Positions 56,052 through 62,911 of a DNA stretch of 64,000 bases are shown here, piece by piece. Made by a program: the position numbers and the translations under genes. Location: contig LBYD01000001.1 of the NCBI GenBank assembly GCA_000995965.1, positions 76,923 to 140,922 of the forward strand, written 5' to 3'. Position 1 is the stretch's first letter. Each line of letters starts with the position of its first letter. The notes beneath the pieces were generated by a model. It was not told the origin of the DNA, ran no database searches, and was given only the letters and a program-made list of their open reading frames with translations. The DNA comes from Candidatus Moranbacteria bacterium GW2011_GWC2_40_12 (GTDB lineage Bacteria > Patescibacteriota > Minisyncoccia > Moranbacterales > UBA11712).

Positions 56052-56303
56052 TTAAACCATTCTTTTTTTCGTGAATTCTTCAATTTTCGCGTCGGGCTGG
56101 ATACCAACTGTTTTTTTTCTCTCAATAATGAATATATATATTATTTCAAGGATTCCGAGGGTGTTTAGGAGCAAAAGTGCTATAAACCAAATCATTTCGC
56201 CTTGTCTGGCCGATTTCCACAGTGCAATTCCTTTCCAGACAAGGGTCCAGATGATGAGCGGAATCAGAATCAAATAATTGTTGAGCAGCGATGTTAGATC
56301 CAC
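56052..56303 (-). CDS. Small two-helix membrane protein (DUF5652-like), GTG start
   Basis: LVWKGIALWKSARQGEMIWFIALLLLNTLGILEIIYI is a pattern I recall from small CPR membrane proteins. No Shine-Dalgarno sequence was seen. Confidence 0.6.
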   Translation of the reverse strand: MDLTSLLNNYLILIPLIIWTLVWKGIALWKSARQGEMIWFIALLLLNTLGILEIIYIFIIERKKTVGIQPDAKIEEFTKKRMV

Positions 56304-56367
56304 AGAAAAAAATTAAACACGAGGGTTATATCTATTGCACCCCATTAGAGTACTTTTTGGATTCACT

Positions 56368-56625
56368 TTAGGCTTCTTTGACTTTAAAAACAGTGGCTCC
56401 TTCTTTTGTCGGACTTGGCACCTTGATCGCAATCTCTTCGCCCTTTTTTCCTTTGCTGACGGGCTCATGGTTGAGCTGGATCGAATCAGCTTTGAGCTCA
56501 AATTCATTGTCTCCTTTCACGAATTTGAGCGGATCCCCCGCCTTGACGACTTTCGACAGTTTCACGACAGCTACCATCGCCTTGTCAAAATAATGAACCA
56601 CTTTTCCGATTTCTTGATCGGCCAT
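56368..56625 (-). CDS. Small beta-rich hypothetical protein (85 aa)
   Basis: MADQEIGKVVHYFDKAMVAVVKLSKVVKAGDPLKFVKGD… looks like a beta-barrel. Family not confidently recognised. Confidence 0.5.
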   Translation of the reverse strand: MADQEIGKVVHYFDKAMVAVVKLSKVVKAGDPLKFVKGDNEFELKADSIQLNHEPVSKGKKGEEIAIKVPSPTKEGATVFKVKEA

Positions 56626-56681
56626 ATTTTTGTGGTTAACGTATTCCTAATACTAGCAAACTTTCATTTTTTTTTCAACCC

Positions 56682-56710
56682 TTGAAAAATTGGGCGAATT
56701 TCAGTAGAAT
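56682..56710 (+). promoter_or_regulatory. Promoter TTGAAA-17-TAGAAT, 16 nt upstream of the truncated tRNA-Gln copy
   Basis: TTGAAA at 56682-56687, 17-nt spacer, TAGAAT at 56705-56710. Confidence 0.6.
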
Positions 56711-56726
56711 ATGAAGGTTGATATAT

Positions 56727-56781
56727 TCCGGGATCGTCTAATGGTAGGACGCCTGACTCTGGATCAGGTAATTGGGGTTCG
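56727..56781 (+). pseudogene. Truncated tRNA-Gln(CUG) copy: acceptor 5' strand, D arm, anticodon arm and the start of the T arm only
   Basis: Identical to the intact gene for 46 nt. It diverges in the T stem (TGGGG vs CTTGG), and GGTTCG is retained. No complementary 3' acceptor strand follows. Confidence 0.75.
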
Positions 56782-56820
56782 CCCGATCATCCGATCGGGC
56801 GGCCGGTCGTATGACCGGCC
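56781..56820 (+). other. Two abutting perfect 8-bp GC-rich hairpins with tetraloops
   Basis: GCCCGATC atcc GATCGGGC (56781-56800) and GGCCGGTC gtat GACCGGCC (56801-56820). They are inserted between TTC and GAATCC of a T-loop-like sequence. Confidence 0.85.
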
Positions 56821-56837
56821 GAATCCCTCAAACATGA

Positions 56838-57098
56838 ATGCATTACATTTATATTCTTTCACTAGGAAATAATAGCTTGTATAAAGGCAGGACTGATAAT
56901 ATTAAAAGGAGAGTATCAGAGCATCAGGCCGGGAAAGTGGAAGCAACCAAATATAAACTTCCAGCCAGATTAATTCACTTTGAATGCTACGTTGTAAAGA
57001 GTGATTGTATACGGCGGGAGAAATATTTAAAAACTACTGAAGGCAGAAGATTTTTAAAACAACAGTTGAGAGATTTATTTAAAAAAATTGTTGGTTAA
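56838..57098 (+). CDS. Small GIY-YIG nuclease-domain protein (86 aa)
   Basis: MHYIYIL…NSLYKGRTDNIKRRVSEH…IRREKYLK matches the GIY / YxG / R / E catalytic pattern. Its stop lies 5 nt before the intact tRNA-Gln. Confidence 0.8.
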   Translation: MHYIYILSLGNNSLYKGRTDNIKRRVSEHQAGKVEATKYKLPARLIHFECYVVKSDCIRREKYLKTTEGRRFLKQQLRDLFKKIVG

Positions 57099-57103
57099 CA
57101 TAT

Positions 57104-57177
57104 TCCGGGATCGTCTAATGGTAGGACGCCTGACTCTGGATCAGGTAATCTTGGTTCGAATCCAAGTCCCGGAGCCA
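57104..57177 (+). tRNA. tRNA-Gln (anticodon CUG), CCA encoded
   Basis: Hand fold: acceptor TCCGGGA/TCCCGGA, D arm GTCT/GGAC, anticodon arm CCTGA-CTCTGGA-TCAGG, T arm CTTGG-TTCGAAT-CCAAG, discriminator G, CCA. Confidence 0.9.
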
Positions 57178-57269
57178 CATTGTATGTTCAGCGTTTTCCA
57201 CTATGCCATTAAAGAGTGTTTAACCTCAAATAAAAGGTTATTGACTTGTAAAGAAAAATTCTGAAGTAA

Positions 57270-57294
57270 GAAACCCATCAGTTGGGTTTTTTTG
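57270..57294 (+). terminator. Rho-independent terminator after tRNA-Gln
   Basis: AACCCA tcagt TGGGTT followed by TTTTT. Confidence 0.65.
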
Positions 57295-57354
57295 GTTCGA
57301 AAATTTGGAATAAGTCCCAAGACTGTAGAACAATATTCTGGTATACTCATATAT

Positions 57355-58170
57355 ATGAAAAAAAACATTCTCATTGTCCTTGTTTTGGTTATTTTCATTG
57401 CTTTTGCATGGTGGCACTTCACTGCCACTGAAGACGAAAGAACTGGCTCGCAAAAAAACAATCAGCCAACGCTTTCCGACTATTCAACCGCGCCTGCCGA
57501 CAATGTCACTGCACCTGCAAAAAAAGTCAGGTGGAACTTTGATGGCGAAGAGTATGCTCCTTCCGGGACGCCCCGGGCATGCCCTGATCCGCTTGAGATC
57601 GAATCGCCCGTTGATGTTTCAAAAGCGTCTTCGATCCTGTATCCGGGCCAATACCGCGGTGATGATTTTAAGGCGCACGGCGGATTTAGGTTTGATGGGT
57701 ATCGGAGCGACGCCATAACCGTCACAGTGCCTCTGGATGCCCGGCTGCAAGACGCGAGCCGGTATATTGAGGATGGGCAGGTTCAATATTTATTTGATTT
57801 TATCCATGACTGCGGCATCATGTACCGATTTGATCATCTGGCAACCCTAACTCCGCGATTTGAGGCGTATGCCCGGCAATTGCCTGAAGCGAAAGTGAAT
57901 GATTCACGAACGACCCTGTTTCCCGATGATGTGTACGTCACGACGGGCGATGTCATCGCAACCAGCGTCAATCGGGAGGGTAATGTATTTGTCGATTTCG
58001 GCGTGTATGATCTGCGCCAAAAAAATGGCATAACCATTGATGAAAAAAATTCGTTGGCGAGACATGGCATCTGTTGGTTTGACCTGCTGCCCGCTTCAGA
58101 CGCGCAGAGAGTAAAATCATTACCTGCCAGCGATGAACGGTCAGGCGCGAAGAGTGAGTATTGCAGGTAA
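57355..58170 (+). CDS. Secreted/membrane-anchored hypothetical protein, G+C-richer than the genome background
   Basis: MKKNILIVLVLVIFIAFAWW anchor. The segment TTGDVIATSVNREGNVFVDFGVYD weakly recalls the LytM/M23 fold, but no HxH motif is present. Confidence 0.62.
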   Translation: MKKNILIVLVLVIFIAFAWWHFTATEDERTGSQKNNQPTLSDYSTAPADNVTAPAKKVRWNFDGEEYAPSGTPRACPDPLEIESPVDVSKASSILYPGQYRGDDFKAHGGFRFDGYRSDAITVTVPLDARLQDASRYIEDGQVQYLFDFIHDCGIMYRFDHLATLTPRFEAYARQLPEAKVNDSRTTLFPDDVYVTTGDVIATSVNREGNVFVDFGVYDLRQKNGITIDEKNSLARHGICWFDLLPASDAQRVKSLPASDERSGAKSEYCR

Positions 58171-62674: not shown

Positions 62675-62709
62675 TAATATTTTATACAAGCCGATGTAGC
62701 TCCCGCCGA

Positions 62710-62884
62710 CGCTAAAGCTTTGGCGGGCAAGGCAGTTGGCGGAAAAATAAAATAAGCCGGAATAGCTCAGTGGTAGAGCAGCGCTTTCGTAAAGCGAAGG
62801 TCGCGAGTTCGACTCTCGCTTCCGGCTCAAATGATGTGGGGGGTAAACTCTGGTCCGCGTTTTTTGCCTGCCGAAGCTTTAGCG
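62710..62884 (+). repeat. 21-nt inverted repeat arms (62710-62730 and 62864-62884) bracketing tRNA-Thr
   Basis: CGCTAAAGCTTTGGCGGGCAA versus the reverse complement CGCTAAAGCTTCGGCAGGCAA. Both differences give G-U pairs on the + strand transcript. Confidence 0.8.
62756..62827 (+). tRNA. tRNA-Thr (anticodon CGU), no encoded CCA
   Basis: Hand fold: acceptor GCCGGAA/TTCCGGC, D arm GCTC/GAGC, anticodon loop TTCGTAA, T arm GCGAG-TTCGACT-CTCGC. Confidence 0.88.
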
Positions 62885-62911
62885 GAGGAGGGCGATCCCG
62901 CGCATCGGCTC

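Follow-up and report, generated by a model that had tools for sequence, protein, structure and literature searches.

Nuclease genes that live among transfer RNA (tRNA) genes have been described in the phages T4 and T6, where SegB, a free-standing GIY-YIG enzyme, recognizes the T-psi-C motif of tRNA genes and homes together with these genes; its recognition site spans 27 bp and its cleavage leaves 2-nt 3' overhangs (PMC2330249). Breaks made by SegB lead to recombination-dependent tandem amplification of a unit with tRNA-Tyr and a C-terminally truncated segB, and the repeats involve microhomology of the tRNA 5' end with the segB 3' end (PMC13096335). Where free-standing nuclease genes take part in intronless or collaborative homing, or in 'fractured genes', the host gene stays functional owing to a neighboring intron, to split inteins or to target polymorphism (PMC2677866). 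Here, a stretch of 64,000 nucleotides from Candidatus Moranbacteria bacterium GW2011_GWC2_40_12 (a member of the candidate phyla radiation, CPR; contig LBYD01000001.1, hereafter the window) was analyzed, in which a small GIY-YIG nuclease gene is located between a broken and an intact copy of tRNA-Gln(CTG). A comparison with related loci indicates that this arrangement is probably a selfish, homing-type nuclease cassette of tRNA genes, which spreads by recombination and supplies a replacement tRNA. It recurs in many different tRNA genes of the ultra-small CPR bacteria.

Among the described systems, free-standing homing endonucleases of the SegB type would come closest to the cassette in their way of working, while it is not a strict member of that group. 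A GIY-YIG domain is present in both, and in both the gene lies among or beside tRNA genes on the same strand. The SegB site is centered on the T-psi-C stem-loop, which is where most cassettes sit (TTC/GAA; in such motifs the slash marks the point of insertion), and the tandem repeats and the truncation seen with SegB resemble the cassette arrays and the fusions of the cassette open reading frame (ORF) to the tRNA. However, SegB has about 221 aa with a C-terminal DNA-binding region and is phage-borne, whereas the cassette protein is an 86-aa catalytic core of the UPF0213/Slx1 branch, not of the I-TevI branch, and belongs to a chromosomal family. Neither a tRNA stump nor a twin hairpin was reported for SegB (PMC2330249, PMC13096335). 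As in intronless and collaborative homing, a nuclease gene is located in or beside an essential conserved gene, the function of which is kept by a special device; in the cassette this device is different, namely a complete tRNA copy next to the insertion. No prior description of the cassette was found in the literature, including the 2006 phylogenomics of GIY-YIG proteins and the 2026 survey of Patescibacteria tRNA introns (subscription-only papers were outside the search), and it has apparently not been described before. What is new about this homing-type nuclease element would be its architecture and the way in which the target gene is kept alive.

Layout of the tRNA-Gln locus

The locus contains, in this order, a tRNA promoter, a broken tRNA-Gln, two GC hairpins, the 86-aa GIY-YIG ORF and the intact tRNA-Gln(CTG); promoter, tRNA copies, repeat arms and ORF are all on the forward strand. 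The promoter TTGAAA-17-TAGAAT (56682–56710; 10/12 matches) is the sole promoter-like site on this strand in 56300–57500, and it is resident, with homologous promoters before the single tRNA-Gln of the relative L096 and before the occupied locus of L101. No terminator-like sites were found between this promoter and the intact tRNA-Gln; judging from the DNA, read-through into the intact gene is plausible, and the promoter presumably now serves the broken tRNA and the nuclease ORF as well as the intact tRNA. An exact direct repeat of 50 nt frames the insertion (56723–56772 and 57100–57149, 50/50 nt, blastn E = 4e-23). Its left arm consists of a 4 nt leader and positions 1–46 of tRNA-Gln, the two arms start 377 bp apart, which gives a 377-bp unit, and a fainter similarity stretches them out to 56716 and 57093. 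The promoter, repeat, 377-bp unit, twin hairpins, ORF, 5-nt gap and intact tRNA had been described in an earlier sequence-only reading of this DNA, and all of them were recovered at the same positions.

The left copy of tRNA-Gln is not a functional tRNA. Its 5' part (56727–56780, tRNA positions 1–54) runs up to the TTC of the T loop, and the hairpins GCCCGATC-ATCC-GATCGGGC (56781–56800) and GGCCGGTC-GTAT-GACCGGCC (56801–56820) sit exactly between TTC and GAA of this loop. The T loop and T stem resume for 7–8 nt after the hairpins (GAATCCC, 56821–56827, which pairs with GGGGTTC ahead of the hairpins), and the remaining 3' part is absent from this copy. The first description, according to which the copy loses the T stem and has no 3' acceptor strand, was thus correct for the missing 3' part, while the T arm turned out to be split by the hairpins and not lost. 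Covariance-model scoring revealed no working tRNA, as had been supposed: the Rfam score (RF00005) was 30.9 bits against a gathering score of 29, it requires three deleted T-loop positions and four mismatched acceptor pairs, and ARAGORN made no call. The intact tRNA-Gln(CTG) (57104–57177) was called by ARAGORN and scored 64.6 bits with the Rfam tRNA model; CCA is encoded, and its T loop is unchanged (TTC/GAA at 57155–57160).

The nuclease gene (56838–57098) starts after a 10 nt leader that follows the tRNA remnant, its C-terminus reaches the tRNA junction, and its stop lies 5 nt upstream of the intact tRNA-Gln. It is the only substantial ORF between the repeats; two further ORFs of 53 and 32 aa cross the dead tRNA and the hairpins. 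A tblastn search found no further copies of the ORF within the 64-kb window. A protein of Moranbacteria bacterium RIFOXYB1_FULL_44_23 has the same sequence as the ORF product (100% identity). The locus is not an assembly artefact, since it was found identical in an independent Joint Genome Institute (JGI) contig (L089) and the exact protein is on record for 13 contigs.

Because tRNA genes are classic integration sites, a remnant of an integrase-type island, or of a group I intron in a tRNA gene, has to be considered. Tyrosine-integrase islands and prophages share with the cassette the insertion in a tRNA gene, a partial tRNA duplication and one intact copy that is left. However, the repeats enclose neither a tyrosine or serine recombinase gene nor any other gene besides the nuclease, the window unit has only 377 bp (<400 bp for the cassette in general), the junction in the loop is capped by hairpins, and mostly the 5' part of the tRNA, in the window not the 3' part, is duplicated. 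An intron with its endonuclease was likewise rejected, since no group I or II intron match, and hence no ribozyme core, was found around the ORF in Rfam even at E ≤ 10. Such an origin is therefore very improbable. The contrast with integrase islands in the duplicated part, drawn in the sequence-only reading, holds for the window and most family members and fails for a mirror form, in which the tRNA 3' part is duplicated.

Two short similarities were found around the locus. The sequence GGTTTTTTTGGTTCGAA (57285–57301), tried as a resident 3' remnant, is probably a chance match and adjoins a terminator-like hairpin. Upstream of the promoter, TGGTTAACGTATTCC (56633–56647) matches TGGTTAACATATTCC (57092–57106) at 14/15 positions, the latter spanning the ORF end, the spacer and the first 3 nt of the tRNA. 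The upstream copy is resident DNA, since it is kept in the empty-site relative L096 (TGGTTAATGTATTTT); the likeness could be due to chance, or TGGTTAACGTATTCC could be the source of filler at the junction.

Nuclease family and its association with tRNA genes

The 86-aa protein was attributed to the GIY-YIG domain family using Pfam (PF01541, E = 6.9e-12, 45.9 bits with a cut-off of 22.6, residues 1–70), and it had no match in NCBIfam and PHROGs. Residues Y3, Y5, Y15, G17, R25, H29 and E49, which correspond to the conserved GIY-YIG core, are invariant in 11 members. The order of secondary structure elements (strands 2–8 and 14–19, helix 22–30, strand 44–51, helix 54–64) fits the GIY-YIG fold, and the AlphaFold (AF2) model has a predicted local distance difference test (pLDDT) value of 92.9. 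Sequence matches in the PDB were limited to the UPF0213 proteins BH0048 (1zg2, E = 1.2e-11) and EF2693 (1ywl, E = 6.9e-11). In the fold ranking 1zg2 and 1ywl were followed by the nuclease domain of Slx1 (7cq3, root-mean-square deviation 1.9 Å; 6seh), and the I-TevI catalytic domain was far weaker. The cassette protein thus shares with the UPF0213/YhbQ-YazA proteins and Slx1, its best sequence and fold matches, a small stand-alone catalytic core. Slx1 is a structure-selective nuclease that contains a C-terminal zinc finger (PHD/RING type) and requires the partner Slx4, whereas the cassette protein ends at residue 86 after the catalytic core and includes neither a separate DNA-binding domain nor a zinc finger of the Slx1 type. 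To our knowledge, UPF0213 proteins have no assigned function, and no link of UPF0213 or Slx1 to tRNA genes or to a hairpin module was reported in the literature covered.

Homologues of the ORF with 51–75% identity were found in other metagenomes, and a profile of the family matched 4,550 cluster representatives at E ≤ 1e-10. When one genome per species was scanned, 404 relatives of the ORF were obtained, of which 80 loci were kept; the association with tRNA genes was counted over 85 related ORFs from other genomes. In 54 of the 85, an intact tRNA on the same strand begins −37 to +16 nt from the ORF stop, and in 7 an intact tRNA ends 0–16 nt before the ORF start. Association of the ORF with tRNA genes elsewhere, which a mobile element of this kind had been expected to show, was thus found for 61/85. 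The other 24 ORFs include 4 array-internal units, 4 at contig ends, one that overlaps a tRNA by 48 nt, four with a tRNA 43–137 nt downstream and one followed directly by a hairpin (L026); nine of the 85 are clearly unlinked to tRNA. The more distant family members that were sampled (L006, L081–L088) are not adjacent to tRNAs. ORFs that abut a tRNA are always on its strand, and at least 20 tRNA species are involved: Ser (four anticodons), Arg (four), Leu (three), Gln (two) and one each of Lys, Ala, Tyr, Asn, Thr and Glu.

The layout of the window was also found on Ser-GCT (L001), Ser-TGA (L002) and Ser-CGA (Lentisphaerae L003–L005, with the break in the anticodon loop), and the four-part architecture recurs across dozens of genomes from several phyla and on different tRNAs. 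The ORF is preceded by a broken tRNA copy, in most cases of the same tRNA as the intact one, which ends in a loop and is followed by the twin hairpins. The duplicated segment begins at the 5' boundary of the tRNA (0 to about −11), ends at the loop and is often 100% identical to the neighboring tRNA. About one third of the ORFs read into the tRNA before any stop, and in all three mirror-form loci with a twin hairpin that were found (L010, L020, L068) the ORF reads into the hairpins. The ORF therefore has no fixed stop codon of its own. The single copy in the window, together with the ability of slippage to yield short direct repeats, could suggest a chance local tandem duplication of a part of tRNA-Gln beside an unrelated small ORF, immobile and belonging to no system. 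This explanation is already contradicted by the survey, in which the same architecture with conserved hairpins recurs in dozens of genomes and at different tRNAs, and it retains hardly any probability.

Carriage of the cassette by phages was also considered and is unsupported, as only 2 weak relatives (37–38% identity) were found among 2.9 million viral contigs. In the annotation, many family representatives have 20–45 additional residues at the N-terminus or appear as two domains fused into one protein (for example, proteins of 655 aa and 214 aa, each with two matched stretches); these annotations are probably gene calls through hairpins, stumps or tandem units. A distant paralogue located off tRNA genes (P0014; L006, 2500–3288) lies between inverted 16-nt arms (GGTAGTGAAAGTTTGA … TCAAACTTCTACTACC), and an empty copy of the same long hairpin, with TTCGAA at its center, is found ahead of the neighboring TspO gene. 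This suggests another lifestyle within the family, with the ORF inside a hairpin loop.

Twin hairpin module

Between the broken tRNA and the ORF a twin hairpin was almost always found, no hairpin filter having been applied. The gap-free alignment of 40 distinct 40-nt modules gave the consensus G CCnnGTC ATYC GACnnGG C followed by G CCnnGTC GRAT GACnnGG C. Since the two loops are mutually reverse complementary, the module reads alike on both strands. In the first hairpin the loop is always ATYC and in the second it follows G-N-A-T; loops and stem ends are conserved, and 13/16 stem pairs show changes on both sides. The unusual GGCC stem of the window recurs in L126 and its GTAT loop in L001 and L125, and a common variant (CCCTGTCGAATGACAGGG) was found at Gln, Ser, Thr and Arg sites in both forms. 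On this comparison, the hairpin variants mark lineages and move together with the ORF; the twin hairpins, which had been noticed in the window, are a conserved, lineage-specific part of the element and not an incidental one. In L128, a block GGTTC-hairpins-GAATCC-ORF follows an intact tRNA-Val; as the T loop of this tRNA-Val is TTCAAAT, the block was carried by the element.

The motif TC/GRAT at the stem-loop border of each hairpin is the core of the T loop TTC/GAAT, and the module is inserted between C and G of a YC/GR step. GTTC/GA of the T loop represents 25/40 distinct insertion sites; the others are TCTC/GAAA, CTTC/GGAA, CTCC/GAAG, TAAC/GGAT and similar sequences in anticodon or D loops. 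The T loop, taken for the target in the sequence-only reading, is the place of insertion at most sites, and the restriction to it does not hold for the family. The tRNA continuation that is kept between the module and the ORF is sharply 6–7 nt long (range 4–8, outliers 11 and 18), and in the mirror form 5–6 nt are kept on the opposite side of the module; simple decay was rejected as its origin, since the length distribution is too sharp. At T-loop sites the kept nucleotides pair with those before the module, which gives a three-way junction on either DNA strand. In the window these junctions fold with z = −4.4 and −4.0; RNA parameters also gave a fold, and for the folds with this short piece z values of −4.2 to −4.4 were likewise obtained. 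A universal three-way junction was rejected, as it is absent at the anticodon-loop site of L003.

Either orientation of the module is found, as are mosaics of 20-bp units (L009, L015, L018, L046), and older stumps gather single hairpins (L001, L027, L053, L067). Units without an ORF are present in L013 and L037, and L009 contains a 76-nt tandem unit. This ORF-less array (L009, 1857–2040) follows an intact tRNA-Ser(GCT) and is composed of a 13-nt spacer, GGTTC, the twin hairpin and the tRNA 3' part; its module, once reverse complemented, is exactly the one that precedes the ORF of this locus. All 47 twin modules in about 430 kb of loci lie within tRNA-derived sequence. No second hairpin unit was found in the 64-kb window, where 2 pattern matches were obtained against 2.3 expected by chance, the other match being the 3' end of a tRNA-Thr; a miniature inverted-repeat transposable element or dispersed palindromic repeat was rejected on this ground.

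An inverted hairpin pair near the gene of a small DNA-cleaving enzyme, with a target-like motif beside or inside a hairpin, is also a feature of IS200/IS605 and of the repetitive extragenic palindromes and bacterial interspersed mosaic elements mobilized by RAYT proteins (REP/BIME-RAYT). The cassette differs from them in that its enzyme is GIY-YIG and not HUH/Y1, both hairpins are at one end, and the window contains no dispersed copies. Intrinsic terminators were rejected, since the hairpins have no T run and none was called, and so were repair scars derived from the flanks, since these have nothing in common with the stems and identical variants are met at different tRNAs. For the hairpins and the stump, all Rfam matches were noise below the threshold (mir-341, CRISPR-DR9, SpF41), and an RNA family or an intron was rejected.

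Mobility and proposed mechanism

The relative L096 has the same neighbors as the window (an 85-aa protein with 79% identity, DUF5652 and GroES) and a homologous TTGAAA-17-TAAAAT promoter, and it contains a single tRNA-Gln(CTG) with neither a GIY-YIG gene nor hairpins. It is the sole empty allele found and represents the empty site that a mobile cassette had been predicted to leave in relatives. L101, a more distant relative (61% neighbor identity), contains the full architecture at the same locus, and its ORF is only 60% identical to that of the window and is not its tree sister. The pattern occupied, empty and occupied in the window, L096 and L101 implies at least two events. The neighbor-joining tree, a weak one built on about 84 aa, places the window ORF with L001 (Ser-GCT) and L010 (Asn, mirror form); it clusters by tRNA only partly and mirror forms are interleaved, so that one tRNA per cassette lineage was rejected. 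At 69–75% identity, the closest relatives of the window ORF are located on Ser-GCT (L125 and L001). In the same identity group, L126 (1380–1830) contains a tRNA-Gln(TTG) stump of the window's type followed by an intact tRNA-Gln(CTG) of an unrelated type, which means either that the Gln-TTG gene was destroyed or that stump and promoter travel with the cassette; in L128 the ORF is found between tRNA-Val and a hairpin-riddled Ser-GCT. In L090–L092, which contain the closest relatives of the 85-aa neighbor gene (79–87% identity), no tRNA-Gln was detected in the available stretch upstream of this gene (about 2.5 kb in L090, 95–300 nt in L091 and L092). The tRNA-Gln of L090 is apparently elsewhere, so this gene is possibly positionally unstable in the lineage.

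Tandem arrays consist of 3 units in L012 and of 2 each in L066, L053 and L039, and divergence or decay is greatest in the unit most remote from the intact tRNA. Between the two units of L053 the nucleotide identity is 87%; L012 has two units with 100% identity to one another, and its distal unit matches both of them at 98.9%. This age gradient fits repeated insertion into, or amplification at, a regenerated tRNA. Nested remnants are also present in some loci.

In several loci the dead and the intact copies are different alleles. Compensatory double changes distinguish them at three variable-arm base pairs in L047 and at two D-stem pairs in L042. The downstream 3' remnant of L042 (…CCCTCTCCG) pairs with the acceptor GGAGAGG of the dead 5' part and not with the intact tRNA (GGAGGCG paired with CGCCTCC), and the flanking remnants of L010, a mirror form, likewise pair with each other and not with the intact tRNA. 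These differences and pairings imply that in such loci a complete foreign tRNA entered together with the ORF and split the resident gene around it. Restoration of the gene upon insertion, as first proposed, therefore stands in so far as an intact copy is present, with the addition that this copy can be imported with the ORF (L047, L042, L010). Downstream of the intact tRNA-Ser(CGA), L042 (1857–2010) also contains several 3' fragments of tRNA-Ser, some with single hairpins, and one T loop among them looks scarred (CAGGGGAGTAACTGAATCCCTG), which suggests several successive invasions.

In the window, 46 nt of the dead and intact copies are identical, and the differences are confined to the 5 nt adjoining the hairpins, where the T-stem strand is TGGGG in the dead copy and CTTGG in the intact one. 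The GAATCCC after the hairpins suits TGGGG and not CCAAG of the intact copy, and the corresponding strand of the L126 stump is CGGGG. The window stump thus looks like a crossover of the resident tRNA-Gln with a cassette-borne block derived from tRNA-Gln. Taken together, the compared alleles show, within the limits of sequence comparison, that the cassette has been gained, lost, amplified and exchanged between alleles. The idea of a minimal selfish element that targets the T loop and restores the gene gained support from the empty site, the tRNA association and the dead left copy.

According to the proposed mechanism, the cassette core is a 40-bp twin hairpin flanked by a few nucleotides of a tRNA loop, together with a nuclease gene that has neither a promoter nor a terminator nor a fixed stop codon of its own. 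The predicted nuclease would cut tRNA genes at a short loop motif, YC/GR and best TTC/GAAT, and the break would be repaired by recombination with a cassette-bearing copy, for which the tRNA sequence would provide the homology arms. Hairpins, ORF and a part of the tRNA or the whole tRNA would be copied into the broken gene in this way. The 5' part of the resident tRNA would remain behind its promoter as a dead stump capped by hairpins, the complete tRNA-Gln after the ORF would let the cell keep its tRNA, and the nuclease would be transcribed from the tRNA promoter. The regenerated tRNA could be cut repeatedly, giving tandem arrays and nested remnants. The hairpins are most likely the cis site of the nuclease in a non-essential stump and could act as a decoy, cut site or barrier. 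We infer an active nuclease that recognizes TC/GRAT, since this motif is common to the insertion sites and the two hairpin loops, and SegB recognizes T-psi-C; the recombination route and the role of the hairpins are likewise deduced from the compared loci. The CG step that flanks and separates the hairpins would fit a cut of the SegB type. Repair by recombination would account for the seamless intact tRNA, the arrays, the mosaic stump of the window and the import of tRNAs that have remnants at their flanks.

Several points weigh against this mechanism. The intact tRNA beside the ORF retains the presumed target TTC/GAA, which leaves the ordinary immunity of homing unexplained. The protein is an 86-aa catalytic core with no DNA-binding domain, while every characterized homing GIY-YIG enzyme known to us has one. 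Homology repair explains neither the capture of the fresh 5' part of a new tRNA species nor the exact 6–7 nt beside the hairpins, and L126, with a dead Gln-TTG and an intact unrelated Gln-CTG, requires extra steps. In addition, the hairpins of the covariation set were chosen using a hairpin filter, so that part of their 98.9% pairing comes from this choice, while the diversity of the pair types does not. Finally, all of the support is comparative.

The main rival is a transposon-like, structure-guided insertion, in which the hairpins form the element end that is recognized by the nuclease, a folded tRNA gene (an extruded cloverleaf, or a strand displaced in transcription) is cut in a loop and at the gene boundary, and filling of the long staggered gap duplicates the tRNA segment between the cuts with no homology to a donor. 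In its favor are the extent of the duplication (5' boundary of the tRNA, 0 to about −11, up to the loop), its frequent 100% identity to the neighboring tRNA, the presence of one cassette lineage at different tRNA species, in each case with a copy of the tRNA concerned, and the sharply 6–7 nt piece that is kept, on either side in the two mirror forms. The 76-nt ORF-less units of L009 and the fold, nearest to the structure-selective Slx1, also agree with it. However, strand transfer by GIY-YIG enzymes is not known to us, the compensatory allelic differences and the remnants around an imported tRNA require recombination with foreign DNA, the window copies differ only beside the hairpins, which fits a crossover better than a fresh duplication, and the 64-kb window contains no dispersed hairpin copies. 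This route is considered rather unlikely. A broader assumption, doubtful at present though deserving some weight, is that the cassette represents a new class of mobile element, in which the hairpins and the 86-aa Slx1-like nuclease would recognize DNA shape together with a 6-nt motif (tRNA-arm-like hairpins with TC/GRAT), insert into folded tRNA genes and build a replacement of the target. With the same reservation, this replacement might arise by a long structure-defined duplication or by import of a tRNA, with no integrase, transposase, ribozyme or DNA-binding domain, and the hairpins might mimic T arms in a programmable way, thereby setting the end of the element as well as its target.

A host operon in place of a parasite was also considered: a small GIY-YIG housekeeping factor would be co-transcribed with tRNAs, and the pseudo-tRNA with its hairpins would be an RNA leader for processing or stability. 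The constant location of the ORF on the tRNA strand inside the tRNA transcription unit agrees with this, as do hairpins that would stand at the 5' or 3' end of the mRNA and the wide distribution of UPF0213 (the 4,550 cluster representatives mentioned above). Nevertheless, the patchy distribution with an empty site, the many different tRNAs, the tandem arrays, decaying stumps and nested remnants, and the variable C-termini of ORFs running into tRNA or hairpins do not correspond to an operon. A two-fold symmetric module in both orientations would not be needed for an RNA element, and no Rfam family matched. An operon is therefore improbable.

If the homing mechanism applies, the cassette is located in an essential single-copy gene, uses its strong promoter and spares the host, since a complete gene copy is left in place or brought along, a parasite's solution that is new and distinct from splicing introns, inteins and duplication of an attachment site. 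It would then be a hidden driver of tRNA gene turnover and of horizontal replacement of tRNA alleles in the candidate phyla radiation (CPR)/Patescibacteria, and would add tRNA pseudogene clutter and gene-calling artefacts (ORFs called through hairpins and stumps) to these genomes. It would also be the first candidate biological context for a branch of UPF0213/YhbQ. For target finding by an 86-aa GIY-YIG core, tRNA-arm-like hairpins with TC/GRAT offer a concrete model; were this recognition rule true, it could provide a tool for insertion directed to tRNA genes.

A second tRNA gene of the window lies in unusual surroundings. The tRNA-Thr(CGT) gene (62756–62828) is located inside a 29-nt inverted repeat (62702–62730 and 62864–62892, 83% complementary, core CGCTAAAGCTT). 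Just ahead of the left arm of this repeat, GCCGATGTAGCTC (62690–62702) resembles the first 13 nt of a tRNA and breaks after GTAGCTC, which is the break point also in the locus L075. The region 62690–62892 may be a relic of another tRNA-disrupting insertion.

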